64,000 bases of DNA from an uncultured Gammaproteobacteria bacterium (GTDB taxonomy: Bacteria > Pseudomonadota > Gammaproteobacteria > UBA9214): contig CAVVHS010000007.1 of NCBI GenBank assembly GCA_963748215.1, forward strand, positions 288,001 to 352,000, in the 5' to 3' direction. Within the stretch, counting starts at the first letter, position 1; the number at the start of each line of letters is the position of its first letter. The position numbers and the translations under genes were made by a program. Below are positions 3,417-63,125 of this stretch, one piece after another. The notes under the pieces were generated by a model. The model had not been told where the DNA came from. It searched no databases and saw only the letters and a program-made list of their open reading frames with translations.

Positions 3417-3860
3417 AACTGTGTCCTCATAAACTGCGGGTCGGGATTGCCCGGGTGCCTGAATGTGCGGTCAGCGCGTGCTGCCCTGTGCAGGACAGCG
3501 TACTGGCTGGTTTCAGGCGGCGTGTTGACGTGCTGTCCTGAATGATAGGCGTGAATGGCTGCAGTGCAAACCGGTGTTTGTGAATCTTTGTGCCTTTGCC
3601 ATGCAGACGACGGGTGAATGCCCGGAAACGACGCCCGCGAACGGACCCTGTGACGGCGATGACAAGCGGCGGAAGATACCTGGTATCAACCTGAATCAGG
3701 ACATGCCATCAGCCGCGTAACACTTGTTCACAATGCTGTAACCATGTTTGACACAAACTGCCTGTTGCCAGCTTGTGTTCGCACTACCCGTAACGAACAA
3801 TGCAGCCATCTGAGATGCCAATCGTGGCTGTACAGTGTAACCCGTAACAGGAGGGTAAAA

Positions 3861-5940: not shown

Positions 5941-6618
5941 ATGAAAAATACAGTCTGGTTATTGGCCGGCGCCGCGTTTGTTCTCGGCGGTTGTGGCGAC
6001 AGGGAACCGGCAGTGACCGGGATTCAGGCGGACCAGTCAGTGCAGGCAGCGGTGGCGGACGTGGTCAGCGATGACGTCGTTACACCACAGGTACAGACTG
6101 CCGGTCAGGGCGGGCATGCTGATTTGGTGCCTGTGCTACCTGCCGACACGTCTGCCAGTACGGCGGGGGAGAGCGTGGAATCGGCAGCCGATACGCCTGA
6201 TTCCGCCAGTGAACAGATGGACGAGCAACTTGTGCTAGTGGTGGGCGCGGCCGGTGCGGCCGGTGCCATGCTTGCAGATGCAGCCCCGGAATCAATGCCG
6301 GAGATTGTCGATGCTGATGCGACGGGCATGACCGCTGCTGGGGAAGCGCCGGCGGATGTCGAACTGGCGCTGGGCGAGAAAATATACGGTGCAAACTGTA
6401 TCGCCTGTCATGGCACCGGTGCGGCCGGTGCACCGAAGCTGGGTGATGCAGCGAACTGGGCACCACGGATTGCGCAAGGTATGACGTTGATGACGGCGAA
6501 TGCCCTGAATGGTTATCAGGGCTCGAACGGTTACATGCCGGCAAAGGGCGGCTTTAGCGCGCTGTCGGATGCCGAGGTAACGGCGGCCGTTGCCTATATG
6601 GCAAGTGAAAGTCGCTGA
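5941..6618 (+). CDS. Cytochrome c5-like lipoprotein
   Basis: LGGC lipobox, acidic linker, CIACH heme motif, GAPKLGD..NWAPRIAQG, MPAKGG. Confidence 0.9.
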   Translation: MKNTVWLLAGAAFVLGGCGDREPAVTGIQADQSVQAAVADVVSDDVVTPQVQTAGQGGHADLVPVLPADTSASTAGESVESAADTPDSASEQMDEQLVLVVGAAGAAGAMLADAAPESMPEIVDADATGMTAAGEAPADVELALGEKIYGANCIACHGTGAAGAPKLGDAANWAPRIAQGMTLMTANALNGYQGSNGYMPAKGGFSALSDAEVTAAVAYMASESR

Positions 6619-6705
6619 CGGGAGGCGCTATTAGGCTGCCGGCAGGGATGCCGGTATGGTTTCCGGGCATACTGACTGGCAAGGATGCCGGTTGGACTCG
6701 GTTTT

Positions 6706-9324
6706 TTATTGCGCCGGCAGTACCAGGCAAAAGCGCGAACCCTGGTATTCGGTGCTCTCCACCTCGACCCGGCCACTGTGAGCCCTGGCCACGGCCTGAA
6801 CGAAGGCCAGGCCCAGGCCTGCACCCGCCTGTACCGGGCGGTTTCTTCTATGCACGCGTTGAAAGCGATCAAACAGGCGCGGCAGTTCGCTGGCCGGTAT
6901 GCCTTCCCCCTCGTCGATGATGCAGCAGTGCCATTCGTCCGTGTGCCGGGAGAGTTCAAGCCGGACAGTGCTGTCCGCTTCGCTGAACTTGATGGCATTG
7001 CCCAGCAGGTTTACCAGGGCGCGCTCAAGCAGGCTGCCTTCGCCATGAATCCATGCGTCTTCCGGCGTGATGTCGCTGACGAGCTGAACGCGCTTCATCC
7101 GGGCGTGTTCCCAGACCTGTTCCAGCGCATTCGTGGCGACTGCAGCAAGATCGACCTCGCGGAGCTGTAACTGGCTGCTGCTTTCCACGCGCGCCAGTTG
7201 CAGAAACTGCTCGGCCAGATCAAGTGTTTTTCCGGCGTGGCTTTCCATGCGCGACAGCAGGTCCTGAATGTCGTCGCTGGTATTCCTGTTCCTGGCAAGC
7301 TCCAGCAATGCCAGTACGGAGACGAGTGGCGATCGCAGGTCGTGTGAAAGAAAGTTGAGCAGTTCGTTGCGTTTGTTTTCGCTGGCCTTGAGTGGGCTGA
7401 TGTCGGAGAAGTTCAGTATGAGCCCGACGGGCTGCAGCGTTTCCCGGGACAGGGGGGCGATTTGCGCCAGCAGCTGGCGACCGTGGTGGTGCCGTACTTC
7501 GACCTGGATCCGTGATTTCTCCAGCAGCGAGTGGCGGAGCAATTCATCCCAGTTTCTGGAATCCTGTATTTGCAGGTCCTTGAGCACTTTCATGATCGAC
7601 TGCCCGACCAGCACGGCGTGATCGCTGCCGCGCAGATACCAGCCGGCGCGGTTATTGGATAGCATTATCTGTCCCAGTGCATTGGTAACCAGTACGCCGT
7701 CAGCCATGTTCGACAGGCTGTCATCGACAAGCCGGCGTAACTCGCGCAACTGCGCGGTAGCCTGCTGCACCTGCTGTATACGTGCCTGAACCACCTCGTG
7801 CGGTCCCCCGGCAACCGGCTCACCCGTTGTCGAAAACTGCTGCTGCAACTGGTCAAGTATTGCCAGTTGCTGCGGGTCGGGCGGCGTAGCTGACTGCCAC
7901 TGCAGCCCCAGGAGCTTTTCCCGGCCTTGATCATCGAGTGTCGTCCACAGGTCGTTGTCGCTGCGAATCCACCGGCTTGGAGGTGTGCCGGCTGGCGGTG
8001 ACTGCGGTGCCTCGCCGTACCGGCTTTCAATGCGGCCATTCCGGTCAACCACGCTCCAGCCTTGCACAGGCAGAATATGTTGCAGGAAATCAAGACTCTG
8101 CTCGAGAGAGTGTCTGGCATGGACGTCCGCCGGCACCTGCTGTTCCTTGAGCCGGTCCAGCTCCTGGCTGAGATAGCGCATCGCCTGCTCCAGCCTGCGC
8201 CAGCTCCAGAGCGGGTAGCTCAGGGCGATCGCCAGCAGGGCCGCGGTGGGTGGATACCAGGTATGCAGTGTGATCAGCAGTGTGCCGGTGACAGCGAGTG
8301 TTGCCAGGAGCAGGCTGACTGTGACCAGCAGGTTGGTGCGGGGTGCCAGGTAGGGAAACAGCAGCATGGGCATCAGTGCCAGCAGGCCCGTCAATGCAAG
8401 TTGCCAGCCCTTGGCAAGCGGGGTGATATAGATACCCTTGAGCAAGGCATCCAGTACGTTGGCGTTGATTTCGACACCGCTCATCGAGTGGCTGAAGCCG
8501 GAGACCGGCGTGGGCAATGCATCGCCCAGCCCGGTGGCTGTTGCGCCGATCAGCACGTATTTTCCGCTGAATGTGCCGGGTGTGTAATTCCCCTGCATGA
8601 CACGGGCAAAGGATATATGCTTGAAATGACCGGGCGGGCCGGCAAACGGTATCAGCAGGGGTTGGGCGCGTGCCCACACCATCATCGACTCCGGGTTTGC
8701 GGTGGCTCCGCCTTGCGCATCTTCCTCAGCCGCAGGCAACGCGCCGGCAATTTGCAGCATGGCCATGCCCAGGTGCGGCCAGTGGGGATGGCCGAGCCCT
8801 TCCCGCAGGAACAGTCTGCGTGCAATGCCGTCAGGGTCCAGTTCGACATGAACATGTCCGAGTGCGGCGGCTTGTTCGCCCAGTAGCGGGAAGGGCAGGA
8901 TTTCGACGGGTAAAGCCCCGAGGCGTGGTTGCTCCATGATTACCGGGAGCGCAACCCGTCCACTGGCACGGATTTCGTTCGCAAACCGGGTATCACCCTC
9001 CGGATTGTCCAGGTCGGGTTCGGCAAAGATAACATCGTAGGCAATCGCACGCGGATGTTCTTCCGAAATCTTCTTCAGCAGATGGGCGTGTACCTGTCGT
9101 GACCACGGCCAGCGACCGAACTGTGACAGGCTGTCCTCGTCAATGGCGATAATGATGATGTTGTCCGGTGCCGGGCGCGACCAGAAGCGGAGCTGTGAAT
9201 CGTAGATAGTATGGTCCCAGCGCCACAGCCAGCCTTGCTGCTGACATAGCAGGGCGAGACCCATCAGCAGCAATGCAAGGGTGATGTATTCGGGCAGCGC
9301 GCGGTTGCGTGTCCTGCCTGGCAT
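6706..9324 (-). CDS. CHASE2-domain sensor histidine kinase with PAS
   Basis: IAIDEDSLSQFGRWPWSR (CHASE2), TM helices, LSHDLRSPL H-box, NLLGNAIKFS, DEGEGI, GAGLGLA. Confidence 0.95.
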   Translation of the reverse strand: MPGRTRNRALPEYITLALLLMGLALLCQQQGWLWRWDHTIYDSQLRFWSRPAPDNIIIIAIDEDSLSQFGRWPWSRQVHAHLLKKISEEHPRAIAYDVIFAEPDLDNPEGDTRFANEIRASGRVALPVIMEQPRLGALPVEILPFPLLGEQAAALGHVHVELDPDGIARRLFLREGLGHPHWPHLGMAMLQIAGALPAAEEDAQGGATANPESMMVWARAQPLLIPFAGPPGHFKHISFARVMQGNYTPGTFSGKYVLIGATATGLGDALPTPVSGFSHSMSGVEINANVLDALLKGIYITPLAKGWQLALTGLLALMPMLLFPYLAPRTNLLVTVSLLLATLAVTGTLLITLHTWYPPTAALLAIALSYPLWSWRRLEQAMRYLSQELDRLKEQQVPADVHARHSLEQSLDFLQHILPVQGWSVVDRNGRIESRYGEAPQSPPAGTPPSRWIRSDNDLWTTLDDQGREKLLGLQWQSATPPDPQQLAILDQLQQQFSTTGEPVAGGPHEVVQARIQQVQQATAQLRELRRLVDDSLSNMADGVLVTNALGQIMLSNNRAGWYLRGSDHAVLVGQSIMKVLKDLQIQDSRNWDELLRHSLLEKSRIQVEVRHHHGRQLLAQIAPLSRETLQPVGLILNFSDISPLKASENKRNELLNFLSHDLRSPLVSVLALLELARNRNTSDDIQDLLSRMESHAGKTLDLAEQFLQLARVESSSQLQLREVDLAAVATNALEQVWEHARMKRVQLVSDITPEDAWIHGEGSLLERALVNLLGNAIKFSEADSTVRLELSRHTDEWHCCIIDEGEGIPASELPRLFDRFQRVHRRNRPVQAGAGLGLAFVQAVARAHSGRVEVESTEYQGSRFCLVLPAQ

Positions 9325-50541: not shown

Positions 50542-50586
50542 CCGCATCTGATGCGGTTCGCTGTGCTTACCATATCCTGCGGGCTT
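50539..50586. repeat. Degenerate REP-like palindrome at the left edge of the island
   Basis: agccgcatctgatgcggttcgctgtgcttaccatatcctgcgggct. Confidence 0.5.
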
Positions 50587-50669
50587 AAGCTGTTGATTCA
50601 CAGTACCCTGGGTAAGGAATTCGTAATTTACGAATAGTGATAAACGTATTCTGTCCCTGCCTATTCGTC

Positions 50670-51638
50670 TCACACGGAGATGACGACTTTTCCTCGCGCG
50701 TGTCCCTGTTCGATGTAGCCGAGAGCCGCAGCTGTCTCGCGCAGCGGGTACGTCCTGTCGATAACCGGCGCCAGTTTGCCTGATTCGACCAGCTCTTTGA
50801 GAACAACCAGGTCCTCGTGATTAGGTATCGAGAGATACCGGCGCAGGTTCTGGCGTACGAACGGTGACAGCATGAGCGGCTTGACCAGGCGGACCAGCAG
50901 TTCGAAGCCCTGCGCCCCTGAACCACTGTTGAGGATGAGTGTCCCGTCGGAGGTGAGTGCGCGCCTGCAGTCCGACAGGGTGCGGTTCTCCACGTTGTCG
51001 AAGACAAGATCGTAACGCTGACCACCCCGAGTAAAATCCTCCCGAGTGTAATCGATGACATGATCGGCGCCGATCGAGCGGACCATGTCCACATTTCCCC
51101 TGCTGCATACGCCGGTCACTTCTGCCCCAAATGACCGGGCAATCTGCACGGCGAACGTTCCCACACCGCCCGATGCCCCATTGATCAGGACCTTCTGTCC
51201 CGGCCGTACTTTTCCCACATCGCGAAGGGCGTGCAGGGCCGCGAGCGCGGAGGTTGGTATGGCAGCAGCTTCTTCAGGTGTGAGGTTTTCGGGTTTGTGT
51301 ACAAGCTCGTCTTCTCCGGCACGCACATACTCGGCACAGGTGCCGGTAGTCGCGCCGAACACCTCATCGCCGGGCCGGAATCGCTTCACATTGTTGCCCG
51401 CTGCCTCGACCCGACCTGCCACGTCGTATCCCGGAATGCCGTGTTTTGGTTTGAGCAGCCCGGTAGCCAGTCGCACGGGGAACGGCGCGCCTCGCACAGT
51501 GAAGCAGTCGCCTGCATGGAGTCCCGCAGCGTGAACGCGTACCAGCACCTGATCATCGTTGATGACCGGTGCGTCGATGTCCCTGAGTTCCAGGACATTA
51601 TCAGGTGCCCCGTACTTGTCTTGAACGATGGCCTTGAT
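50670..51638 (-). CDS. NAD(P)-dependent alcohol dehydrogenase / quinone reductase (MDR); apparent ATC start
   Basis: Frame extends to ATC-AAG-GCC-ATC (xKAIVQDKYGAPD) after GGAGG; INGASGGVGTFAVQIA; GHARGKVVI. Confidence 0.85.
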   Translation of the reverse strand: MKAIVQDKYGAPDNVLELRDIDAPVINDDQVLVRVHAAGLHAGDCFTVRGAPFPVRLATGLLKPKHGIPGYDVAGRVEAAGNNVKRFRPGDEVFGATTGTCAEYVRAGEDELVHKPENLTPEEAAAIPTSALAALHALRDVGKVRPGQKVLINGASGGVGTFAVQIARSFGAEVTGVCSRGNVDMVRSIGADHVIDYTREDFTRGGQRYDLVFDNVENRTLSDCRRALTSDGTLILNSGSGAQGFELLVRLVKPLMLSPFVRQNLRRYLSIPNHEDLVVLKELVESGKLAPVIDRTYPLRETAAALGYIEQGHARGKVVISV

Positions 51639-51965
51639 GGTAGCCTCCCGATCCGTTGACCGTTACGGTGGGTCAAACCCCTCCACATTATTCATACACG
51701 CCCTGGCGTGATGACGTACCGGATTCGATGTTGGTGCCTTGAATGAAATCTCCACAGCCCCTGACATGACGACACGAGCACTTGTATAGTTTCACTGTCT
51801 AGCAGAGCATTCTGCACCTTTAGGCAGGGAATATCCTGTTTCTGTTAGTTGCTATCCCTTCGTCGCGCTTTGAGTGCCGATTATTGCTGAGGCCGTTGAG
51901 GGAAATGGGCGGCCAACCGCAGAATTTCGACAAAAAGCATCACGGCGTCCGGATGAGAAGAATGC

Positions 51966-52274
51966 TCAGCGAGTACGCTGGCCACCGTCCGGCAATATCT
52001 GCTGCATCATCCCTGCCGGATTCATTTTTTGAAGCTGCTGGCTTCCCTGGGAGAATGTCTGCCCCAGGCCGCGAATGCTTTGCTCCATGCGCTGCATGGA
52101 CTCATTCATGTTTCTCACACTGTCCTGCATTTCGCTGACATCCTGCGAAATGGCGCCCACGTGTTCGGTCATCTCGCCCATCGATTTACTCATATCGAAC
52201 ATCAGCTTCAGAAATAACAGTGCAATGACTCCTGTGGCGAGTATTAATAGCGTCTGTGTCGGTTTGCTGGTCAT
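51966..52274 (-). CDS. Small single-TM Met-rich coiled-coil protein
   Basis: TM helix, then MSKSMGEMTEHVGAISQDVSEMQDSVRNMNESMQRM; ends MNPAGMMQQILP. Confidence 0.75.
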   Translation of the reverse strand: MTSKPTQTLLILATGVIALLFLKLMFDMSKSMGEMTEHVGAISQDVSEMQDSVRNMNESMQRMEQSIRGLGQTFSQGSQQLQKMNPAGMMQQILPDGGQRTR

Positions 52275-52342
52275 GGTATTGTTTGCCTCATTGGCTCAGC
52301 GGGTCTGATGCTATTGATTCGTCGATATTAACGGAGGCAAGC

Positions 52343-52474
52343 ATGTACATACAATTGCAACCACTCGCCGCATTGATCGCGGGCATCCTGATCCTGGCCG
52401 TGCCTCGTTTGCTCAATTATATCGTAGCCATCTATCTCATTCTCGTCGGTGTCATCGGCGTTTTCAAGCTCTGA
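52343..52474 (+). CDS. DUF3096-family small membrane protein
   Basis: GGAGG RBS; ALIAGILILAVPRLLNYIVAIYLILVG. Confidence 0.85.
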   Translation: MYIQLQPLAALIAGILILAVPRLLNYIVAIYLILVGVIGVFKL

Positions 52475-52583
52475 AACGCGGCTCAATCGGGACGTCGAAA
52501 AAATCCATACGAGTGGTGGATGTGAGCGGAAGAGTGGTAATGATTATTCCCAGTGCGGCATCATCATGGCATCAGTAAATGGG

Positions 52584-52775
52584 AACTTCCGGATTGGAGC
52601 GCAAATCCGACCTTCAGATGAAGTGATGTATCTGTGCGATCACGGTGTGGGTAACGTCAGACGCCGGCCACAATGCGACATTCCCGTAGCTCCTGTGAAG
52701 GTCAGGAACGCAGCAATAGTTGCCGTTCGCAGAATTCTTGGGTACTTCGTTTACCGATCAATAACGGGCTGTCTT
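52584..52775 (+). repeat. Cluster of 30-bp island units
   Basis: 52653 AACGTC-agacgc-CGGCCA-caatgc-GACATT; 52698 AAGGTC-aggaac-GCAGCA-atagtt-GCCGTT; 52584 31-bp variant. Confidence 0.7.
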
Positions 52776-52805
52776 TGGTTTTTACTCTGACCCCAAATCA
52801 TATAA

Positions 52806-52830
52806 GAAAAGGGGCCGTCAGGCCCCTTAT
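52806..52830 (-). terminator. Probable intrinsic terminator downstream of the Gly-rich gene
   Basis: aaaaggggcc-gtca-ggcccctt; U-tract on the minus strand. Confidence 0.65.
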
Positions 52831-52903
52831 CCGTTGCAGCTTAGGCGTCAGGGATGCAAAGAAACAGCTACACCCTGAAGCCTTTGGCCGGAATGGCTTA
52901 TCG

Positions 52904-53440
52904 TTACTGATAACTACCCGGCGGCGCAGCCCAGGGCTGCATTGGTGCCGGCTTGTTGGCCTCCTCGAGTTTCCTGATACGCGCCTTCAAACGTTGAATC
53001 TCAGCGGCACTCCCTGCGTCTGCCGGTGCACCCGCACCGGGCGCTCCGACATGGCCGGGACCACCACCATAGCCGGGACCACCACCATAACCGGGCCCAC
53101 CACCATAGCCGGGACCACCACCATAGCCGGGCCCACCACCATAGCCGGGACCACCACCATAGCCGGGCCCACCACCATAGCCGGGCCCACCACCATAGCC
53201 GGGACCACCACCATAGCCGGGGCCACCACCATAACCGGGCCCACCACCATAGCCGGGGCCACCACCATAACCGTAGCCTTGCCCCCTGTCATAATCATCG
53301 TCACGGTCTTTATCTTTATTACCACCCATCCACTTGGATGGATTCATCATATTACCCATATCCAATGCACAGGCCGGGTTGGCAAACAGCACGCTGACCG
53401 CCATAAAAATTATACTGATTGTTATTTGCTTGTTTTGCAC
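52904..53440 (-). CDS. Secreted Gly/Tyr/Pro-rich protein (sulfur-globule-protein-like composition)
   Basis: Signal peptide ending ACA; LDMGNMMNPSKWMGG; 12 x YGGGPG; short C-terminal coiled coil. Confidence 0.8.
   Translation of the reverse strand: MQNKQITISIIFMAVSVLFANPACALDMGNMMNPSKWMGGNKDKDRDDDYDRGQGYGYGGGPGYGGGPGYGGGPGYGGGPGYGGGPGYGGGPGYGGGPGYGGGPGYGGGPGYGGGPGYGGGPGYGGGPGHVGAPGAGAPADAGSAAEIQRLKARIRKLEEANKPAPMQPWAAPPGSYQ
53055..53270. repeat. 18-bp coding tandem repeat, 12 copies
   Basis: ccgggVccaccaccataR x12. Confidence 0.95.
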
Positions 53441-53611
53441 CGTCTATTCCTCGCGTATTATTAATGTAATCGTCAGCGGACAAACGATGCTGCCCGCCTG
53501 CCTCTCGACTACCCTTATCCCACTAGCCGGTCATGGGGTCAAATAAAAGTACATAAATGGGTTCTTATGCGAGGGATAAGCTCAAGACAGGTAGGTATAC
53601 AGCCTAATGTG

Positions 53612-53800
53612 AAGGTCTGGAAAGGGGCGGCTCCCGGTCACCTGACTAATTTACTCAGGAATTTCTCCGGGAACTTCCGAATCCGGCCAACAAGAGACCT
53701 TCTCGGTTACCGGCCTGAACGGAAAGTTCATAGACAACTGAGACGTTCGAACTGATTTTATTAAGAAAGCCCGTTTTCAGGACATTCCCTTGCCATTCGA
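53612..53800 (+). repeat. Cluster of 30-bp island units
   Basis: 53612 AAGGTC-tggaaa-GGGGCG; 53672 AACTTC-cgaatc-CGGCCA-acaaga-GACCTT; 53718 AACGGA-...-GACGTT. Confidence 0.7.
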
Positions 53801-54105
53801 ACTCTACATCAGCATTTGGTGATTAGATGATGTATAGCTTTCAGTCATAGTATTCGCATACAGCCTCTCTCCATTTGCTTCTATAGAGATCCAGGCCGGT
53901 GCATGTTGGACAACACGAACAGCCGGTTATGGAAAATCCATTATTAATCGAGACATCCCTTGCTGATGACGACATTCTAGCGATTGATGGCATTGCTTAT
54001 CAGGCAAGCGGAGTCGTGGAACGGCAACGACGATTTCCGAATCCCTGGTACACTGCGATCGGGACTGCGTTTCGTATAAATCATAGTCTGTGCTCGAATC
54101 ACAAA

Positions 54106-55470
54106 ATGTGGTCTGTTCGCCCATCAGCATTCCTTCTGCCGCTGGTACTCCTGCTCTGGCTGAACGGCGCCGGCGCACAACCCTTTGCAGGCATCCAACA
54201 ACCCGAATCGCCGGTTTCATTTATTGATATACCGCTGCGGCTGTCTCTCGAGCCCCTCATCAATGCGGCTGACAGGATGCTCCCGTACCAGGCTGGCAAC
54301 TGGCGCGCATGGAAGGACTGGCACGGTATAGATTCACAATACCGTGGCTGGCGCGGGCCGCTCAGCATTACTGCCTCAGGCAATGTGCTATTAGTACAGG
54401 CGCATATCCGTTACTGGATCAGGGCACAAAAAAAATTGCTTGGTGCAGTCACCCTGAAAGCCAGCTGCGGCATCGATGAAGCGCCACGACAGGCAGTAAT
54501 CGGCATGCAGGTGCTGCTGGAGTGGGGACCGGACTGGACCTTGAGACCGAGGTTTCGCATTCTGCCGACCCGGTTTCTCGACCGCTGCGAAATGACCATC
54601 GCGAATATCGATGTTACGCCCGTCGTCGAGACTGAATTCCGCAAGCAAATGCAGGAAAGCCTGCGTGCGGCACTCAAGTCGCTGGCTCCCGACGTGAATG
54701 CAATCCAGCGTCAGGCTCAGCAAACCTGGTCGTTATTGCAGGAACCGGTGGAACTCGGACAGGACAACTGGTTATTGCTCAGGCCGGCGAGTGTCGCACT
54801 GTCTCGCATAGACGGTGGGGAGAAATACCTCGACGCACATCTTGCACTGACATTGCAGCCGGCGCTGGTGACCGGAGCTGAACCCGCCGGTAAACCGGTG
54901 CCGCTGCCACCATTAGGACAGTATTATCCCCGGTCCGGCGAGTTAAATCTGCACCTGATTTTGAACCTGGATTTCCCCACACTCAATCAGCGGCTTTCCG
55001 ACACCCTGGCCGGCAAATCATTTGTCATCAAAGGTCAGAAGACCGGCATCAAAAAGCTCGACCTGGGGGGTAGCGGACAGGAAATCAGAGCCCGGATGGA
55101 ACTCGCCGGCGACCTGACCGGTACGGCGGAACTGCGTGCGAGGGTGGCCTATGATGCGCAACACCAGAAGCTTGAATTACAGGACCTGACGTTTGAGTAT
55201 GACGCGGAAGATTCCACCGTGGAGATGTTAGCGGAGGCGTTCCATGAACCCATCCGTCAGGCACTGGAAGACGCGGCTAACCAGGCATTGGCACAGCACC
55301 TCGATCTGCTCGGCGAGCGCCTTGGGACGGTTCTGAAGAAAATCATGCCAGCGGGTGTAGTGCTGGACCTGTCTGCCTTGCAGCTAAGCAGCGTGCAAAT
55401 TCTTATCGAACAACAGGGTATCAGGCTGGATGGAACCGCCACCGGGAGCGCCCGCCTGGTGTTACGCTGA
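54106..55470 (+). CDS. DUF4403-like exported protein
   Basis: Signal peptide; SCG.DE.PR; W.L.P; DRCEMT; W..LQEP.....NWLLLRP. Confidence 0.75.
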   Translation: MWSVRPSAFLLPLVLLLWLNGAGAQPFAGIQQPESPVSFIDIPLRLSLEPLINAADRMLPYQAGNWRAWKDWHGIDSQYRGWRGPLSITASGNVLLVQAHIRYWIRAQKKLLGAVTLKASCGIDEAPRQAVIGMQVLLEWGPDWTLRPRFRILPTRFLDRCEMTIANIDVTPVVETEFRKQMQESLRAALKSLAPDVNAIQRQAQQTWSLLQEPVELGQDNWLLLRPASVALSRIDGGEKYLDAHLALTLQPALVTGAEPAGKPVPLPPLGQYYPRSGELNLHLILNLDFPTLNQRLSDTLAGKSFVIKGQKTGIKKLDLGGSGQEIRARMELAGDLTGTAELRARVAYDAQHQKLELQDLTFEYDAEDSTVEMLAEAFHEPIRQALEDAANQALAQHLDLLGERLGTVLKKIMPAGVVLDLSALQLSSVQILIEQQGIRLDGTATGSARLVLR

Positions 55471-55543
55471 CCGCTTAGCACCAAGACCACGGCCGCGGCC
55501 TGCCCGCACTGTACGTGGACAGCGTGCTCCTAGGCTGTAATCG

Positions 55544-55668
55544 AAGGTCTTCTTACGCTGCCTTTCGTGCCATCTGATCGAATGTCTACAACGGGTCGGC
55601 TCTCATCGATTAGAGAAATCTTTTATAAGCGTCTCGTGTAGGGATGGGCTCGGCCAGAACTTGCCGTT
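55544..55668 (+). repeat. Cluster of 30-bp island units
   Basis: 55581 AATGTC-tacaac-GGGTCG; 55639 TAGGGA-tgggct-CGGCCA-gaactt-GCCGTT. Confidence 0.7.
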
Positions 55669-55873
55669 CGTGCAAACAAAAACGGCGTCCAGCGAATAAA
55701 AGAAGGCCGCCGGATGAATGCAAGTCTGTAAAGCCGCTTTCCTTCTTGCTATCCCGACCAGACCCTGCAGGCCAGTGCCTGAGAGGTACAGTCTGCGACC
55801 TGGCACTGCCTGGGGAGGTTGCCGTAGAGCGTCTCTGCGATATACTCGACATCATCTTATCGAGGGAGTAGGT

Positions 55874-56455
55874 ATGAAGATAATCAGAATGATAGTCTTG
55901 CTGACGCTACTGGCTGCACAGGGGCTGGCGTGGAGTGGCTTTGATGAGGGGCTTGCGGCAGCCAAAGCTGGAGACTATGCAACGGCGTTACGTGAATGGA
56001 GACCATTGGCTGAACAGGGTAATTCCAGAACGCAATATCATCTCGGGATCATGTATGAAAATGGTCAGGGTGTTCCGCAGGACGACAAAGAAGCGGTGAC
56101 TTGGTACCGCAAGGCGGCTGAACAGGGTCATGCCGGTGCGCAATATAATCTCGCACTCATGTGCCGCAAAGGCCAAGGTGTCCCGCAGGACGACGAAGAA
56201 GCGGTGAACTGGTACCAAAAGGCGGCTGAACAGGGGTATTATATGGCGCAAAACAACCTCGGCCTCATGTATGGCAGTGGTCTGGGCGTCCCGCAGGACT
56301 ATGTCCAAGCCTATAAGTGGTTCAACATTGCAGGCGCAAACGGTGATGAAACAGGAACAAAGAACCGAGATAGCGTTGCTGAAAAAATGACCCCCGCACA
56401 GATCGCAGAAGCGCAGAAACTCGCCAAGGAATGGATGGAGAAACATCAGCAATAG
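55874..56455 (+). CDS. Sel1-repeat (TPR-like) exported protein
   Basis: Three copies of (A)QYNLG.MY..GQGVPQD..EAV.WYRKAAEQG; MTPAQIAEAQKLA. Confidence 0.93.
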   Translation: MKIIRMIVLLTLLAAQGLAWSGFDEGLAAAKAGDYATALREWRPLAEQGNSRTQYHLGIMYENGQGVPQDDKEAVTWYRKAAEQGHAGAQYNLALMCRKGQGVPQDDEEAVNWYQKAAEQGYYMAQNNLGLMYGSGLGVPQDYVQAYKWFNIAGANGDETGTKNRDSVAEKMTPAQIAEAQKLAKEWMEKHQQ

Positions 56456-56560
56456 CTGATTGCCACTGTCGGCATTGTCCTACAAACCCACAACAAATCC
56501 AGATGGGACCTGTATGGCTCGTTAGTTCCATTAAGTGACCATTCATATAGGAGTCGGCTA

Positions 56561-56714
56561 AACGTCCGAGAAGGGTCGTCTCCCGCTGTTTAGAGGTTAC
56601 TTATATAGTAATTGTCCCTGCGTCTCAGTACGGCCAGACTGGACATAGACTATAGGCAAAAAACACCGCTGATGCGGGTTCATGTAGATCCTTGTTCAGC
56701 CAGGAACAGCCGTC
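56561..56714 (+). repeat. Cluster of 30-bp island units
   Basis: 56561 AACGTC-cgagaa-GGGTCG-tctccc-GCTGTT; CGGCCA-gactg-GACAT at 56631; CAGCCA-ggaaca-GCCGTC. Confidence 0.65.
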
Positions 56715-56806
56715 CAGAGTTTTCGCGAAATTGCCATGCGTTTCGGCTTTGGAAGAAAAGTGATGGTGTTTATATGTGCGTTTCACAATCGGCCTTGTAG
56801 TTGCTG

Positions 56807-57028
56807 TCAACGCGAGACTCCGCGCCAAATGAAAAGGCTTCCAATGACAACAAGTGCGATCATTCCTATCCAGTAAGCTTCTGGCGCGGTTTCCGGACAA
56901 ACGGGGTAACCACCAGTGCGCGAGGTTGCTGGGAAACAGCCAGTCACAAATCCGTAGGCAGCAAATCCAAGTGAAAGACAGCCCGCAACGAACATTTTAG
57001 GTCCCGAGTTGCCCCACCAATTAAACAT
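56807..57028 (-). CDS. Small 2-TM hypothetical protein
   Basis: GAGTAGG RBS-like; two hydrophobic helices; PEAYW motif. Confidence 0.6.
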   Translation of the reverse strand: MFNWWGNSGPKMFVAGCLSLGFAAYGFVTGCFPATSRTGGYPVCPETAPEAYWIGMIALVVIGSLFIWRGVSR

Positions 57029-57375
57029 AACCTACTCAAGCGATAAAGTGCCGACACTATATAAGTCCCGGGTCGTAATCCAACTTCGACGGAAAGTCGG
57101 AAAGCCGAGATAGCATGCCAGGGATATCGTCGGCTCCGATAGATATTCCTTTATTACTATATTGATAGTATGACTGTGAAAGTATGGAGGTCACGTAAGG
57201 GTCGATCCCGGAAGTACAGCCTGTAGGTCGCAATTCGGCCTGTTGTCTTGAAAAACTCCAATGACCTGCTGACGTCATTATGTTCATTTAGAAATCGTGC
57301 ATGAGGGCTTCCTGAAATCCGTAATATTTTGCAACATGACAAAGCATCTCACTCTCGTGCGCGGTCGATTTCTAG

Positions 57376-57585
57376 TAGCAGGGTTTTTCAACACTATCGG
57401 CCACAATGCGACATTCCAGGTGTTCACGTGAAGGTCTCAGTAGCAGTGCCAGTTCATTCGAGTAATTTACTCAGGTATTCCCCATGTTACTTCCGAGTGC
57501 GGCGAGAACCGGACGTTCCCTGGATGCAGAAAACCCTGCTAGTGCGGGTCTCCTGGGTGGCAACTTTAGGCCAGCAACAGGCGCT
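57376..57585 (+). repeat. Cluster of 30-bp island units with a 12-bp inverted repeat
   Basis: CGGCCACAATGCGACATTCC identical to 52665; 57488 TACTTC-cgagtg-CGGCGA-gaaccg-GACGTT; TAGCAGGGTTTT (57376) / AAAACCCTGCTA (57530). Confidence 0.75.
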
Positions 57586-57639
57586 GTGCCGCCGAATATT
57601 CTTTACGCTATTTCGTGATTGTCTGGTGATGCCAGAGTG

Positions 57640-58494
57640 CTAATGCTTGCCAAATAAAATGGCTTTTAGATGTGCAAATATTCCAGGTCTGGCAACATCG
57701 TCAACAATATACAGTCGATCACCGAATTGTAAATCGTCGAGACGTTTACTCAGTTGCGCCGTCTCCTGTGAGAGTCGCTCCACCAGCAAAAATATTTCAT
57801 TGTCAGATTCTTTGTTTCCAGAGATATTCTCGCTTGTTGCTGTTATTGACCCGTCAAGGTTATGGCCAGCCGCTTCCGGACGCCTTCCTGTTTCTCTCGA
57901 CATTGCTTTCACTGCTACTTGCATCTGTGTTGTTGTTTCAGTCAGTTCATTACTGAGAGTTGCGACATCAGCCCTGAAGTCAGTTGCTCTGTGCAATATT
58001 TGTCTTATTGCACTGTCTTTGGCTTCAAGATAGCAGTGAATTACCAGGTCCATATCCAGGAAGACCACTTTGCTTAAGGCTTCCAGAAGCCGGGCAATCG
58101 ATTTCTTATCCCCCGTATGATTCTCGGTAATTAGTTCGATAATCTGACCAAACATCTGACAGTATCCACCGATATACCAGTTGATGGTTAGCCCAACTTG
58201 TGCATGCGCACGTCCGATCTGTTGCGCCCTTTCAAAGAATGCATTGTCGTATTCACCATTGAATAATGAGTTCAACCAATGATATTTTTGCCCTGCGCGG
58301 GCGCGTGCGATTGCATCACCATCAACAAAAAGTTTCTTAAGTTCAGGCTGTCTGAGCAGGTGATCGTAAAATCGATCTAGCATTCCGTCCATTGCTGGCT
58401 CGATGAATATTCTGGCGGCCTGAATTTCGCGAGTTGTTTCTGTATCAATTTTCAGAAATTTGAGGCGCTCCTCGATCATTTGTGTATGTGGCAT
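57640..58494 (-). CDS. Protoglobin / globin-coupled-sensor domain protein without a recognisable output domain
   Basis: RLKFLKID, LDRFYDHL, Q..HW, IGRAHAQVGL...WYIGGY, KVVFLDMDL. Confidence 0.88.
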   Translation of the reverse strand: MPHTQMIEERLKFLKIDTETTREIQAARIFIEPAMDGMLDRFYDHLLRQPELKKLFVDGDAIARARAGQKYHWLNSLFNGEYDNAFFERAQQIGRAHAQVGLTINWYIGGYCQMFGQIIELITENHTGDKKSIARLLEALSKVVFLDMDLVIHCYLEAKDSAIRQILHRATDFRADVATLSNELTETTTQMQVAVKAMSRETGRRPEAAGHNLDGSITATSENISGNKESDNEIFLLVERLSQETAQLSKRLDDLQFGDRLYIVDDVARPGIFAHLKAILFGKH

Positions 58495-59621
58495 ATTCCA
58501 CCTCCAAGACATGTGTTATTCGAGCCGAATATTGAATCTCGGATATACCTCGGTATCCGGCTAATTGGTGAGCCAGGTCACAGCAGCATTCGCCATGTGT
58601 TCGTGACTTGTTCTGTTATAATGTTGTTGCATTTCTTTCAGTTCAATTCTGTGCCTATGTTCTCGGCGCGAGACATGCAGAAAGCATAACCCACTTATCT
58701 CGAAATAATCCATCCACAGAACTACCTGCGCGCGCAGGTTAATGCGGCCGCATCGGCATATCCACTGAATACGCACTCGTAGATCGCCAGCGCTTGCTTA
58801 TGGTTCCTCAATGGCATCCCACCAGCAGGCTGCAGACTCACCTGTTGATTGACGTCCAGAATAAATTCCTCAGAATTCGTTGTACATCTCCAGGTGTCAT
58901 GCAATTTTGTATATCAGGTAGCGATTGTGTCACAAGCGAATTCAACGAGTCATGATGTGGCATTTCGCGTTTGTATTCTGTATTGACTGCCACGCTGTCC
59001 GATCGAACAGAATACATCAGTAAAATATTCTATGCTGTGCATATACATAGCCCTTTCTCTATTTCCCAGACATTTCCCCTGGTACTTCCGAACCCGGTCA
59101 ATACATGTTATTCGCCAGATTTCCATGGACATCATGTTGATACTGGTTGTGGGCATGCGTGAGATCCATGTCTAGAACCTATATCAAATAGGCCAATGCA
59201 TCTCCTTATCGGTAATTATCTTCGCACTTGCATGGCGTGCATGTCCGCCAGTAAATCAGCAACACATGCGGCGAAGTGTTCACTGAATACTGTTGTCGCA
59301 GATCAACTACATTGCATCGTACATCAGAACGCAGAATTTCCTGGTTCAATCCAGCACACTAGCTTCAAAAGTGGCAACCGATCAAATAACCATTGATCAC
59401 AGCGTCGTAAATCAGAGACAACGTATCGTACGTCGGTACACATAACCACCTGATTTAATTTGACACATCGAACTGGTGCGTAACTTGCAGCTAGTCGTGC
59501 GTCTGCGAAAATGAGCAAACATGGCGATCACAGGAAAGCACCCACACTGAGCATTAGTACGCATTATTTGCGCCGATACTACATATAGGAGATTTTGAAG
59601 TTAAAGTTAGTTTTCTAAATT

Positions 59622-60542
59622 ATGGAATGGATCAAACAAAAATTGGAGGAGACGCGTAAACGACGGGAGCTGGTGCAGCAAGTCCATGCTGCCTTATCTG
59701 CAGATATGCTGTATCCACCACAGCGCGCCTTCGGCGCTGGGACATATCGGCTGCTCCCCCTGAAGGGCAGCATGTGGCGTATATCAGAAATAGCCATGGT
59801 GATCGCATCGGTCATAATTGCCTGGTTGATCGGAACGGGCCAGGGGCCGGTGGTATGGTTACACAATCTTGACCTGCTTGAATCCAATCAAGTCAGCTCA
59901 GCCGAAAGCCCGGCCGATGAACAGCTGCAGACGCATGTCACCGGCCTAACTGAACGCGTGGACAAGCTGACTGATTTGATTCTAAATCTGGAGTCTGGGC
60001 TGATACATGCCCGCGGTATCACGGATTCAATTATCGATTCTGAACAGAAAATTGCGTCCTCGACTACTCCAGAGCCGTCGACAACTGGCGAGGTAGTGCA
60101 AATCCTTGAGACATTGCCGTCCTCAGCCGCTGGCAAAACACGCAGAGGGATGAGCATTGAAAAAATGCCCCGGCAAACCCCAGCCTGGAGAACAACCAGG
60201 CCCAAAAACACAACTGGTATCCCCGCTATCACCGTCAGTAAGACCGCGATAGAGGGACAGAAGAATTCGGTTATTGGTATACAACCCGCGGTCAGCGTGG
60301 CTCAACAGGGCCCATGGGTCGTCAATCTTGCTTCTTTACCGAGTAAGACCGATGCCGAACGATTCGCGGAAAATGTCCGGATCATGGATATCGAAACGGA
60401 ACAGCAACACGTCACCGTGAAAGGCAAACAATACTGGCGTGTGCAGATAACCGGCTTCTCAACAGCGGCGGAGGCCAAGGCTACTGCCGGAACCACTATG
60501 GAAAAGCTGGGACTTAAGGAAATCTGGATAACGAAGCACTGA
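59622..60542 (+). CDS. Membrane-anchored SPOR-domain protein
   Basis: TM helix, coiled coil, linker, WVVNLASL....DAERFA...YWRVQITGFST..EAK. Confidence 0.82.
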   Translation: MEWIKQKLEETRKRRELVQQVHAALSADMLYPPQRAFGAGTYRLLPLKGSMWRISEIAMVIASVIIAWLIGTGQGPVVWLHNLDLLESNQVSSAESPADEQLQTHVTGLTERVDKLTDLILNLESGLIHARGITDSIIDSEQKIASSTTPEPSTTGEVVQILETLPSSAAGKTRRGMSIEKMPRQTPAWRTTRPKNTTGIPAITVSKTAIEGQKNSVIGIQPAVSVAQQGPWVVNLASLPSKTDAERFAENVRIMDIETEQQHVTVKGKQYWRVQITGFSTAAEAKATAGTTMEKLGLKEIWITKH

Positions 60543-60684
60543 GTGTTCAGGGGACGCAGAAATATCTGATTCCTGACCTGTCGTTCCGAGCAAGTGCCGT
60601 TGTACAACTACTCCAGCTGATATCTGATAGTTGACCGGGTATGCCCGCTTCTCACCGGCTTCTTCCATTTTGTGGTTTTGTCTA

Positions 60685-60812
60685 TACGTCGTCTACGGGT
60701 CAGTCTTTCCCGTTAAAGCGACTAAAGGTTCGACTGGGTTCGTCTCCCGTCCTTTGCCGAAATCTTATATTGGCGTCTCGTGTAGGACAGGGATCGGACA
60801 ATAGTTGACGTT
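60685..60812 (+). repeat. Cluster of 30-bp island units
   Basis: 60685 TACGTC-gtctac-GGGTCA-gtcttt-CCCGTT; 60725 AAGGTT-cgactg-GGTTCG-tctccc-GTCCTT; 60783 TAGGAC-agggat-CGGACA-atagtt-GACGTT. Confidence 0.75.
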
Positions 60813-60948
60813 TAGATAATACTGATACTTAATTCCGAGCACATTACAGGGGCACTCCGTGCACCCCCGATAACCCACGTGGCTGTTGCAGTGTGCCCAA
60901 ATAAATCGGCGACCCGAAGGCCGCCGCTGTTGAATCGGTTATAGCTAC

Positions 60949-61506
60949 TTACGCTTTCTTACGTCTGGATATTCCGACTAGCCATAAAAGGCCAGAGCCG
61001 AACAAATATGCCGCCGCGGGAATCGGCACGGTCGACAGGGTGGCAGTCAACGTCGAGGATGATGTTAGAATCGTTGAATCGTTGATAAGAGCTCCGTCTA
61101 TGGACAATAGCTGATTCGGGTTACCGCTCACGAAACCCAATCCTGAAGCCCCCACCCAGTTCCACGCTTGGCCGCTCGTAGAGGTGCTTCCACCGCCGGT
61201 AATAAATTGCTGGGTGTTGGTATCAAAATTGAAATTGAAAGTTGTGGTACTACCGTCCGTCAGGTTCCAAGTACCGATCAACTGAGTGTTGAGGTACGCT
61301 TCTAACATCAGTGTGTCGATACTGTTTTCATCAATCACACCCGTTCCGATCAGGCTATCACTGTAACTAAATGCGCCGCTCATGGTGTACCCATTGGCGC
61401 CGGCCCATGAAATGTCGAACGAGACTGCGCTGGATATGCCGGGCATAAACCCTGCTACGACCAGTCCCAGCGAGCAAACAATACCTAAAAGGCCTGATTT
61501 TTTCAT
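60949..61506 (-). CDS. VPLPA-CTERM (PEP-CTERM-like) surface protein
   Basis: Signal peptide; Ser/Thr/Gly-rich; ends VPIPAAAYLFGSGLLWLVGISRRKKA. Confidence 0.92.
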   Translation of the reverse strand: MKKSGLLGIVCSLGLVVAGFMPGISSAVSFDISWAGANGYTMSGAFSYSDSLIGTGVIDENSIDTLMLEAYLNTQLIGTWNLTDGSTTTFNFNFDTNTQQFITGGGSTSTSGQAWNWVGASGLGFVSGNPNQLLSIDGALINDSTILTSSSTLTATLSTVPIPAAAYLFGSGLLWLVGISRRKKA

Positions 61507-61885
61507 ACTGCATCATCCTCTAATACTATGTTGATGTTCACAAATTAGAATTCCAGAATTATTGATCTATTGTCAAAAGCCCCAGACCCATACAAAGCAA
61601 AGATATCCAAATGCATAGGGCTATGCTGTCATTGGCCCTCGGCCGAATAGCTCTCTTCAGCATCACTCTCATTTAGAAATACCCAATATACATTGAGTGA
61701 GCGTCTTTTAGAACTGTTTGCCAGAGCGTAAAAGTTCATAATGCAGACGGACTCACAATATTCGCACCGCATACCCGTCAAAAGAGTGAAGTGACATAAC
61801 TTTACATGTGACATGTAAAGAACTGTGTGTCTGAGATCGCAAATCTTTCCGATCACTAAGCGGTTGTTCGTATATATGGTGTTTA

Positions 61886-62032
61886 AACGTCTGAAAAGGG
61901 TCGTTCTTTGTCGTTAAGTCATTGTTTATATGCGCGGTTTATGTAGGGCCGGAATGGGATTTGTTCCAGACCTTAACCTGTCGTTTAAGCAAGCGCAGAC
62001 TTTACCTCCGGAACGAGTCAGCACTGAGCTTT
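61886..62032 (+). repeat. Cluster of 30-bp island units near the right edge of the island
   Basis: 61886 AACGTC-tgaaaa-GGGTCG-ttcttt-GTCGTT; two weaker units follow. Confidence 0.65.
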
Positions 62033-62177
62033 GATAAATCAACAGAAGTGCCTCACGAGAATGCCCTGGTAGCGGGCCGCTGTACTACAGCGCGGTCCGA
62101 TGTCGAGGGGGACTTGCACACAGGCGGGTAATTCGTCAGCAGCAGTGCCATCCCGGTGAACACCGCTACGCGCTGTC

Positions 62178-63125
62178 TCAGGCGGCGCTGCCGAGCCAGA
62201 AGCTCATGTCCTTGTCGAGGAATTCGTGCCAGGACATGTAGTGCGAGCCGTCGCAGGAGAAGGTCAGGCTGATCATGCCGTTGAAGATGTTGATCGAGGC
62301 CGAGCGCAGGTACAGCGTTTCGTCGGCCGTGCGCAGCTGGCGCATGCCGCGCAGGATGCTGCCGATCTTCTGCTGCGGAATCAGCGCATCCGTCGGCCAG
62401 AGACGGCGCGGGTAGAGCATGCAGATATCCGGGTCGCCGAGCGCCTCGTGGTCGAGGATGCGGTAGCGGTACGGGTCTTCCATGAACCACACGGTGGCGC
62501 GGCTGCTGGAGAAGTGGATCACGGCCTGGAACAGGCCGCGCTCGGTGAACAGTTCCTCGAATATGGCCATGGCCGGTTCCATGTTGCGGTCCATCACGCT
62601 GTCCACGCGGCATTGCTGGAACACCGTGCCGCGGATCGCGGGGTCGCCCTTGATCTGGCGCCAGGCGTCCGATTCCACGTAATGCGCGGCCGTGACCGGC
62701 AGGTCGCGCAGGTCAAAGTCGACGCCGATGTAGCCCAGCCGCTTACTGTCGTCGCACACCACCTTCAGCGCGGTCAGGGAGGGCCGGTTGGATCGCAGGC
62801 TCAGGTAGGCACCGGAGAGCAGCAGGCCGCACTCGGGCACGGCCTCGCGCATATAGGGGCGTTGCGAGCGGTCGCGGCCGAAGTGCTCCGGCAGCAGGCC
62901 GGTATGGCTGATGTTGTCGCTGATCTGGATGCCGTTGCTGTCCAGCGCATAGAAGAACATGCCGTAGGGTACACTGCGCAGCCCATCGCCCAGCACGATA
63001 TCGAGTTCCTCGCGCGATCCCCAAACGGGTACGCATTGTGTGGCAAGGTCTTGCAGCGGGACGGATAGTTCACTCTCCAGTGACTTGCGCTGGCGGGCGA
63101 CGGCGTCTTTCCAGGTATCTTTCAT
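62178..63125 (-). CDS. Hypothetical protein with N-terminal Cache/PDC-like domain
   Basis: YALDSNGIQISDN, GRDRSQRPY, GYIGVDFDL; WRQIKGDPAIRG; INIFNGMISLTFSCDGSHYM. Confidence 0.8.
   Translation of the reverse strand: MKDTWKDAVARQRKSLESELSVPLQDLATQCVPVWGSREELDIVLGDGLRSVPYGMFFYALDSNGIQISDNISHTGLLPEHFGRDRSQRPYMREAVPECGLLLSGAYLSLRSNRPSLTALKVVCDDSKRLGYIGVDFDLRDLPVTAAHYVESDAWRQIKGDPAIRGTVFQQCRVDSVMDRNMEPAMAIFEELFTERGLFQAVIHFSSSRATVWFMEDPYRYRILDHEALGDPDICMLYPRRLWPTDALIPQQKIGSILRGMRQLRTADETLYLRSASINIFNGMISLTFSCDGSHYMSWHEFLDKDMSFWLGSAA

Follow-up and report, generated by a model that had tools for sequence, protein, structure and literature searches.

Probable sites of a very small tyrosine-recombinase family in low-GC gene islands of a gammaproteobacterial genus

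Integrons and the dif modules of Acinetobacter are two known ways to stack unrelated genes by means of site-specific recombination. The attC sites of integrons are targeted by insertion sequences (ISs) and by group II introns. The dif sites and their plasmid counterparts (pdif) have an 11-6-11 layout, with distinct XerC and XerD arms that are conserved beside the spacer. Recombinases of about 200 amino acids acting on inverted sites are also familiar, among them the short invertases FimB and FimE, and Rci of the shufflon. We describe here a repeated 32-bp unit that punctuates a gene island of low guanine-plus-cytosine (GC) content in one bacterial genome, labelled G000. The island lies in the window, the whole stretch of 64,000 nucleotides that was analysed (G000:C7:288001-352000, where C labels a contig). 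We consider it probable that these units are the recombination sites of a family of very small tyrosine recombinases, and that they were multiplied in the genus, building low-GC islands module by module.

Two families of described elements are close to this system. In Acinetobacter plasmids, according to the excerpts available of two reports, pdif modules are moved by XerC and XerD at short sites of inverse orientation with a 6-bp central region, and two classes of modules must alternate; matching central regions are needed, which leads to exchange or inversion rather than simple excision, and ISs target the sites (PMC13141974, PMC10132070). The neisserial dRS3 repeat, in the available part of its description, is a short palindrome, with 6-bp inverted ends around a variable middle, found on either side of segments (RS elements) of 50-150 bp, which form many families in intergenic arrays. 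These arrays collect ISs and adjoin genes for variable surface proteins, and dRS3 was proposed to consist of recombinase sites, used by a phage recombinase (PMC1797815). It is 20 bp long and, in the accessible portion of a further report, is one part of a repeat that forms a hairpin and is cleaved by a GIY-YIG nuclease acting on single strands (PMC11893778).

Architecture and confinement of the 32-bp site

A first-pass annotation of the window had read the repeat as a 30-bp unit made of five hexamers. Its full form is a 32-bp near-palindrome: a 7-bp arm (GAAYGTC), six variable positions (N6), a 6-bp core (KGGYCG), another N6 and the inverted arm. The succession of five blocks has stood, while the arms proved to be 7 bp or longer; the consensus proposed at the time is valid as a loose description only, with a single exact match, at 52653. 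Copies were scored with a half-site matrix (7-bp arm, N6, 6-bp core) derived from aligned copies of R1, an element of about 95 bp composed of one site, a conserved 26-bp middle and a second site in inverse orientation. R1 was found by aligning intergenic pieces of the island with matching low-GC spots elsewhere in the genome. G000 holds 19 copies of it according to nhmmer and 21 according to a sequence-only model, all of them clustered, on five contigs. It is present in 35 of 37 genomes of the genus (1-24 copies each) and absent from all 150 other genera that were sampled within the class. Two readings of R1 itself were set aside by eye: a sigma-54-like motif in its right half is off register by one base and present in some copies only, and the conserved TATA-rich middle has spacings that do not fit a promoter.

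Of 143 half-sites, 35 have an inverted second arm precisely at +6 past the core, while 13 other offsets have 0-2 each. Such constant spacing of two inverted arms about a short centre, here 7+6, 6 and 6+7 bp, is the layout of a tyrosine-recombinase core site. Throughout the genus the consensus of arms and core is maintained while the N6 segments drift. GGGTCG and CGGCCA, the two forms of the core, are better taken as opposite readings of KGGYCG, identical at four of six positions when inverted and at three of six when read directly. We call L-type a site with GGGTCG on the top strand, and R-type a site with CGGCCA.

The unit is restricted to islands. Over the whole genome, 47 matches reach at least 16 bits, where three block shuffles gave 10, 13 and 6; at 14 bits or more the count is 109, for 55, 54 and 47 after shuffling. 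They concentrate in low-GC DNA: 49 of these 109 fall within the 13% of the genome where GC is below 0.56. The window repeats the picture; the first-pass annotation had not noticed the unit in its 50 kb of core DNA. Its 51.8-62.1 kb segment holds 16 matches of at least 10 bits and the remaining 53.7 kb holds 18 weaker ones; a positive-scoring inverted arm lies 6 bp past the core in 10 of the former and in none of the latter. At 14 bits or more, 10 of the 11 matches of the window lie between 51.9 and 61.9 kb.

From left to right, the site-bearing part opens with a half-site at 51897..51928 (minus strand, matrix score 14.8, no second arm). A complete 32-bp site follows at 52652..52683 (minus; 15.8, second arm 6.8), flanked by degenerate ones seen by eye at ~52583-52614 and ~52697-52728. 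The composite element at 53611..53702 (plus), a member of repeat family D3, joins an L-type half-site at 53611 (13.3) to a complete R-type site at 53671 (15.1, second arm 8.5). In R1 no. 1 (55580..55679, plus; 71.8 bits as R1, half-sites 19.1 and 17.3) the two sites are 58 bp apart, core to core, around the conserved 26-bp middle. R1 no. 2 (56559..56648, plus; 46.8 bits) combines a complete left site at 56560-56591 (21.9, second arm 6.1) with a degenerate right half. Complete sites stand again at 57186..57217 (plus; 12.9, second arm 6.7) and 57487..57518 (minus; 14.5, second arm 4.1), followed at 59082..59113 (plus) by a degenerate one, recognized by eye and through repeat families D3 and D18, which lies below the matrix threshold. 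R1 no. 3 (60723..60823, plus; 71.6 bits, half-sites 12.7 and 18.6) is accompanied by an extra half-site at 60684, and R1 no. 4 (61884..61973, plus; 49.6 bits) contains a site of 22.3 with a second arm of 3.1. The six coordinates singled out in the first-pass annotation are all half-site matches: 52653, 53672 and 57488, which were not among the seeds of the matrix, belong to the complete sites just listed, while 56561, 60783 and 61886 belong to R1 nos. 2, 3 and 4. To the seven intergenic gaps then said to hold units an eighth, at 58.5-59.6 kb, must be added with its unit near 59082. The figure of two to four copies per gap is reached only when degenerate copies seen by eye are counted.

These sites act as double-stranded DNA, not as hairpins. 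Eight elements gave folding z-scores between -1.7 and +0.9, no better than shuffles, and RNAalifold returned three pairs without covariation and no consensus fold. In 62 complete sites the complementarity of the arms equals the shuffled expectation and the N6 segments do not pair at all. The hairpin that defines attC, with paired R and L boxes and a conserved structure, is absent. This bears directly on the idea that the island is a degenerate cluster of attC sites lacking integrase (CALIN), served by the integron integrase of the genome. G000 does have a canonical chromosomal integron (G000:C2:74000-98338, loci L015, L006 and L001), with its attC array at C2:74-97.4 kb and its integrase gene at C2:97400-98338 (TIGR02249, 443.7 bits, one internal TGA); the low-GC 23 kb upstream of this gene carry at least 20 attC sites in one orientation, and R1 shares with them an arm-spacer-box layout, a position after genes and a common orientation. 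A covariance model built from 10 canonical attCs of G000 recovers these and more than ten others in the C2 array, yet the window yields no match to it at E up to 10, nor does R1 elsewhere. The AAC/GTT triplets of the attC ends (RYYYAAC and GTTRRRY) occur in some R1 copies only, and R1 shows neither folding nor covariation of the arms. Nor does the integrase track R1: IntI was found in 21 of the 37 genomes, without correlation, one genome (G002) having an integrase and no R1, and G023, G018 and G017 having 14, 11 and 9 copies of R1 and no integrase found. We regard the attC explanation as scarcely credible.

Much the same may be said of hairpin repeats mobilized by a single-strand enzyme, either REP/REPIN sequences, which flank the gene of their Y1 transposase (RAYT), or NTS-like repeats, hairpins of 20-50 nt beside the gene of a GIY-YIG nuclease (Ssn) of ~94 residues. 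Like REPs, the units are palindromes outside genes and are targeted by ISs, and G000 encodes five Y1 transposases and one single-domain GIY-YIG protein of 84 residues. Against this stand the lack of any hairpin signal, the lack of sites of at least 14 bits within 1.5 kb of the five Y1 genes, and an orientation of R1 that is not linked to replication (four of eight clusters agree with GC skew). The lone GIY-YIG gene (G000:C7:386578-386830), of Ssn-like size, lies in GC-rich core DNA without flanking repeats. Both variants of this explanation, REP/REPIN-RAYT and NTS/SRM-Ssn, were rejected, and we give them next to no credence. As to dif and pdif, identity with these sites was also discarded: the arms of the present sites are alike and it is the 6 bp beside the core that vary. 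The early statement that the unit is neither dif nor attC is borne out.

The small tyrosine recombinase and its flanking sites

A candidate enzyme came from the annotation of arrays in relatives. Inside the site arrays of G018 and G048 lies a gene for a tyrosine recombinase of 214 amino acids. It belongs to a family of about 205-215 residues (~211), reduced to the catalytic domain, with no core-binding domain and only some 45 residues ahead of the catalytic part. The match to PF00589 is clear (67.5 and 74 bits, for a cut-off of 27.1), and the catalytic Arg, His-x-x-Arg, His and Tyr align to those of XerH and XerD; the likeness to the NCBIfam family of tyrosine-type DNA invertases is weak (23 bits, below cut-off). 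The gene is found in 11 of the 37 genomes of the genus, mostly as pseudogenes or broken copies. In four of its loci, three of them intact or near-intact, an L-type site stands about 110-165 nt before the start codon, and in three an R-type site stands about 135-150 nt past the stop codon.

The association reaches far beyond the genus. The family counts more than 8000 clusters at E 1e-10 or better. Its range includes Proteobacteria as well as Acidobacteriota, and it has matches in 444 plasmid records. We collected 80 homologous recombinase loci (59-73% identity) from very different bacteria, with 700-bp flanks on each side, and scanned them with a matrix made only from the non-coding R1 copies of the genus. 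Matches of at least 13 bits numbered 42, against a mean of 5.6 and a maximum of 11 in 20 shuffles. Their orientation follows the gene: all 20 upstream matches are on the plus strand and 19 of the 20 downstream ones on the minus strand, located about 90-170 nt before the gene and 30-100 nt after it. At each junction the site is complete and includes an inner arm. A matrix derived from R1 matches both flanks of the recombinase gene, so the 32-bp unit is the end of a recombinase-only unit of about 0.75-0.9 kb that occurs across phyla. The island carries this kind of site, minus the enzyme.

Indeed G000 itself is without the gene. Its tyrosine recombinases are XerC-like, XerD-like and IntI proteins, together with fragments, and a tblastn search for a remnant of the small recombinase found in this genome only weak likeness to XerC, XerD and IntI. 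G000 being without this recombinase, its sites are orphan: either they are inactive relics or they can be used only by an incoming enzyme. The initial proposal of tyrosine-recombinase sites with an enzyme acting in trans has therefore held in substance, since the window and G000 lack a cognate enzyme while the same half-sites bracket the ~211-residue recombinase. It had added that no family could be named. For the enzyme this can now be done, as a family of catalytic-domain-only tyrosine recombinases.

Two other kinds of enzyme were considered and dismissed. G000 has no match to PF00239, the serine recombinases, and its two IS110-family genes are not near arrays. In phage P2 the half-site pattern gave 51 matches for 45.3 expected, none of them in the flanks of fun(Z), with a few similar blocks seen by eye only. 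In G018 (locus L047, G018:C4, 7171-9149) four canonical attCs, scored at 23.8-38.9 bits by the attC model, adjoin an array of 32-bp sites with an intact small recombinase.

Arrays, module borders and cargo

The accessory island extends over 50542..62177 between conserved flanks, its site-bearing, low-GC part covering about 51.9-62.0 kb with a GC content of 0.47-0.57, against ~0.62 in the core DNA. Between the flanks (the window up to ~50513 and from ~62161), G002:C4 and G007:C36 have only 0.5-0.6 kb, and G008:C6 has 5.1 kb of different content without any site. Since the spacing differs among these genomes, the stretch is a strain-variable island at a variable locus.

The arrays have a grammar of their own. 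In 27 array loci from G000 and its relatives, adjacent R1 elements are co-oriented in 41 of 44 pairs, and all four copies of the window agree. Of the genes that follow R1 on its 3′ side, 53 of 72 lie on the opposite strand, as do 46 of 68 on the 5′ side; the usual array may therefore be written as gene, reverse R1, gene, reverse R1. The window is atypical, with genes pointing both ways. Single sites behave differently from R1. Adjacent ones alternate in orientation in 82 pairs and do not in 50, and the co-orientation once ascribed to the asymmetric core, before its two forms were recognized as opposite readings of one sequence, belongs in fact to R1. From an L-type to the next R-type site, the distance between cores is 55-61 nt in 16 of 40 cases and 119-127 nt in nine (25 together); from R to the next L, 38 of 42 distances are longer than 600 nt (median 1.2 kb). 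As these distances are bimodal, small modules alternate with gene-sized ones, and, as in pdif arrays, modules lie between inversely oriented sites and fall into two alternating classes. A singular array in G006 (L037, G006:C87, 7959-8330) repeats six times in tandem, every 67 bp, a 32-bp site with a terminator-like hairpin behind it.

Such regularities might be asked of operators, and it may be supposed that the units bind a dimeric transcription factor controlling the secreted or surface proteins of the islands. A double-stranded palindrome without covariation, an intergenic location, the preferred orientation of R1 relative to its neighbours and a cargo made largely of secreted or surface proteins would all suit this explanation. 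We nevertheless judge it very improbable, because the units lie at widely varying distances (16 to more than 600 nt) from the starts and stops of adjacent genes, because tandem runs with terminators and empty 95-bp elements occur, because units mark breakpoints of homology, and because the same sites bracket the recombinase gene on both sides in unrelated taxa.

The borders of modules coincide with the core. When arrays were compared with one another for segments of at least 80% identity over at least 150 bp, 16 of the 68 internal ends of 18 homology segments fell within 15 nt of a core, for 1.1 expected and a maximum of 6 in 1000 draws. Some near-core ends are insertions of other elements; the breakpoints of gene-sized homologous blocks lie 0-8 nt from the core. 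Thus the DUF4403 module is 94% identical, over 53730-55550 and 55577-55596, to a segment of G013:C225 placed in a different context, and its homology starts at a degenerate core and stops inside the GGGT of the next site. A 5.7-kb block common to G012 and G017 has both junctions at half-sites. The homology of the SPOR gene to G008:C10 runs through R1 no. 3 and stops at 60797, inside the right core. Contigs assembled from public sequencing runs, which have low depth and count as hints only, point the same way. One of them, from run X7, joins 55565 to 60759, skipping 5193 bp and four modules between two R1-type elements. A contig of run X2 diverges right after 52715, the core of a degenerate neighbour site; a joint from this run resumes at a core, at 52664, and an X2 contig differs to the left of 56596, just past the site of R1 no. 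2. Run X8 has a loose end at 55550 with a continuation of the G013 type. Uncovered stretches and the many loose ends near 62231-62235, which stem from paralogues of a flanking gene, are uninformative.

The core is also a place where mobile elements settle. A non-coding module of 170 bp with 23-bp inverted ends, at 57234..57403, is present in three copies in the genome (the others, 92% identical, at C9:216069-216238 and C8:301612-301779). Its homology runs from core to core, with outer N6 segments and arms that differ in each copy. No direct repeats border R1 or these three copies, and the outer N6 differ between sides as well as between copies; a miniature inverted-repeat transposable element (MITE) of a DDE transposon, which has terminal inverted repeats and a target-site duplication, was therefore discarded. 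An IS of the IS3 family sits next to the core at the same position in two different R1 copies, L041 (G051:C10) at 6500-7809 and L049 (G044:C113) at 3156-4463, and appears to target R1 specifically. IS1397, which targets REP sequences, is a comparable case. The end of an IS5-type element abuts the core in three loci. In L046 (G017:C36), finally, a GC-rich insertion of 490 bp (4391-4879) with a D1-D4 fragment of a group II intron (RF02003, 109.9 bits) splits the core, the intron-free allele being found in G012:C39.

From this accumulation a less eventful history could be drawn. The units would be decayed ends, or miniature derivatives, of a once-active mini-element, selfish and MITE- or REP-like, which piled up in horizontally acquired DNA and attracted mobile elements; ordinary transfer and homologous recombination would have made the mosaic, in which sites delimit nothing. 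R1 copies that are only about 70% alike, a genome without the recombinase, four unrelated mobile elements in or beside the core (the IS3-type, the IS5-type, the 170-bp element and the group II intron fragment), the tandem run of G006, which resembles an expansion of repeats, and the site-free 5.1-kb insert of G008 all agree with this account. It meets difficulties, however, with breakpoints of gene blocks placed 0-8 nt from the core, where homologous recombination would scatter them across the ~95-bp repeat, with the spacing grammar, an alternation of short L-to-R and gene-sized R-to-L modules, and with arms and core that hold their consensus throughout the genus while N6 drifts. We take the decay of a selfish repeat to be unlikely, though it deserves to be kept in mind.

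The interpretation of the units as recombination sites of the small tyrosine recombinase is nonetheless challenged on several counts. No recombination event was directly observed, and the public runs compared were all assembled contigs. Many of the 16 homology ends near cores are insertions into sites, six being contributed by the 170-bp element and others by the ends of IS3- and IS5-type elements; in a set of lower identity no more than 4 of the 55 ends fall close to one, for 1.0 expected. An excess of borders at the units, for which a test had been suggested at the outset, was found, with the reservation that much of it reflects IS and 170-bp insertions and not the exchange of cassettes. The joint in X7 has a depth of 2.5 and a short side of only 39 letters at 90% likeness, and may be the own arrangement of a relative. 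Alternation of sites concerns only 62% of the pairs. The divergence of R1 copies means that the arrays may be old and inert. Furthermore, the inner 6 bp of the arms, adjoining the supposed crossover, are poorly conserved in the genus, which is unusual for sites of tyrosine recombinases. Outside the genus, 69 full-length recombinase loci gave a match of at least 11 bits at the left in 19 cases, at the right in 23 and on both sides in 10, and two plasmid homologues have no match of at least 13 bits. In five other genomes that bear the recombinase, a strict half-site pattern did not clearly exceed its control, with 5 against 6, 1 against 0, 7 against 0, 12 against 8 and 2 against 2, and the arrays may be special to this genus.

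The genes carried by the island of the window are mutually unrelated. A secreted Gly-rich protein is encoded at 52904-53440 (minus strand), with 14 copies of an 18-nt repeat; it has relatives several times in G000 and in most related genomes. The DUF4403 module extends from core to core over 53730..55596 (plus; gene at 53899-55470; Pfam PF14356, 223 bits). It is followed by a Sel1-repeat gene at 55875..56455 (plus; PF08238, 126.8 bits, scored on the open reading frame 55718-56455, the start at 55875 having been picked by eye) and by a protoglobin-domain gene at 57640..58512 (minus; PF11563, 137.9 bits). The product of the latter, 290 residues with an N-terminal domain and a C-terminal half without assignment, may be a globin-coupled sensor. 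The 1.1 kb that separate it from the SPOR gene (58513-59621) are AT-rich, with a single degenerate site and no convincing gene. The SPOR-domain gene itself (59622..60542, plus; PF05036) is linked to R1 no. 3 in three genomes. At 60949..61506 (minus) lies a gene for a secreted protein of the PEP-CTERM/VPLPA-CTERM type, a reading that combines a weak NCBIfam PepA match (25 bits, below cut-off) with the C-terminal sorting motif recognized in the first-pass annotation; a similar gene occupies the short site in G002. An open reading frame of 73 codons completes the cargo. Rfam found no family between 52.0 and 62.5 kb at E up to 1, and no tRNA or tmRNA was detected in the window.

A proposed mechanism and its place among known systems

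If the units are the sites of the small recombinase, a simple scheme may be proposed. Each site would be read as 13-6-13, one recombinase monomer binding each arm with its N6 (13 bp), and strands would be exchanged in, or at, the 6-bp core. In many bacteria the recombinase unit, some 0.75-0.9 kb, lies between two inverse sites, with GGGTCG as its left core and a right core that reads CGGCCA. In this genus small modules (the 58-bp interior of R1, the 126-bp type and the recombinase unit) alternate with gene-sized cargo modules. Since the two ends of a module carry different cores, alike at four of six positions at best, recombination between them would be poor, while like cores on different DNA molecules would recombine well. 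Two crossovers would then swap a module, a single one would fuse replicons, and inverted like cores would allow a block to flip, so that modules may be swapped or inverted rather than excised as circles. Such a process would parallel, in nature, cassette exchange by heterospecific sites as well as the shuffling of dif modules. Its logic, the one described for the dif modules of Acinetobacter plasmids (PMC13141974), would also account for the mixed orientations of genes beside the uniformly oriented R1 of the window. It departs from the capture of cassettes that had been imagined at first: modules bounded by inverse sites with different cores fit exchange or inversion better than excision and integration, and several breakpoints at sites turned out to be ISs, a small repeated element or an intron inserted there.

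A broader proposition is that we are dealing with a widespread platform for the shuffling of genes, in which a recombinase of ~211 residues devoid of a DNA-clamping domain, the smallest known type of tyrosine recombinase, encoded in a unit of ~0.8 kb between two inverted 32-bp sites of unlike core, would swap or flip whatever DNA is enclosed by such a pair of sites. We see as much reason to accept as to doubt it. If true, it would give a third natural cassette system, a third way of stacking unrelated genes beside integrons and dif modules, and it would explain a class of low-GC islands, overlooked by integron finders, in which each intergenic gap holds a repeat. It would also provide a concrete pair, a protein of 214 residues and a site of 32 bp with two natural core variants, of interest as a compact tool for recombination. 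The pair is apparently undescribed: full-text searches of the literature, with supplements outside their reach, gave no description of it, nor does the part available of one report (PMC8138268), whose supplementary tables of recombinases may bear on this statement, as may the repeat lists of another (PMC11893778).

How does it compare with what is known? With the Fim and Rci recombinases the small enzyme shares its position between two inverted sites, and inversion is therefore a likely reaction. The relation in sequence to the Fim proteins is marginal, and unlike the Fim and Rci systems, in which a promoter or a gene fusion is varied, no phase-variable target of this kind was seen, the sites being dispersed in arrays between unrelated genes. 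The mosaic elements of Neisseria offer a similar landscape of repeats, and the same old hypothesis of recombinase sites. In contrast to dRS3, which is tied to a phage-encoded transposase or recombinase, the present site is 32 bp long, has a conserved core, is duplex-like and is associated with a tyrosine recombinase.

Arrays of integrons, and CALINs, resemble the islands in their unrelated, low-GC and mostly single-gene units, each followed by a co-oriented repeat, with an enzyme acting in trans. They differ in that attC works as a folded single strand, conserved in structure and free in sequence, whereas the sites are here duplex palindromes conserved in sequence; that these sites alternate in orientation; that the enzyme is not IntI; and that the covariance model of attC fails on them. 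The dif modules of Acinetobacter come nearest, with their inverse sites, their 6-bp centre, their two alternating classes and the ISs that target them. Here again there are differences. A 32-bp site (13-6-13) with two similar arms implies a single recombinase and not the XerC/XerD pair, its arms do not resemble those bound by Xer proteins and, unlike the case of dif modules, a role of the host Xer proteins is not indicated. The present sites, furthermore, populate chromosomal islands, and they have their own recombinase of ~211 residues, encoded within one of the modules.

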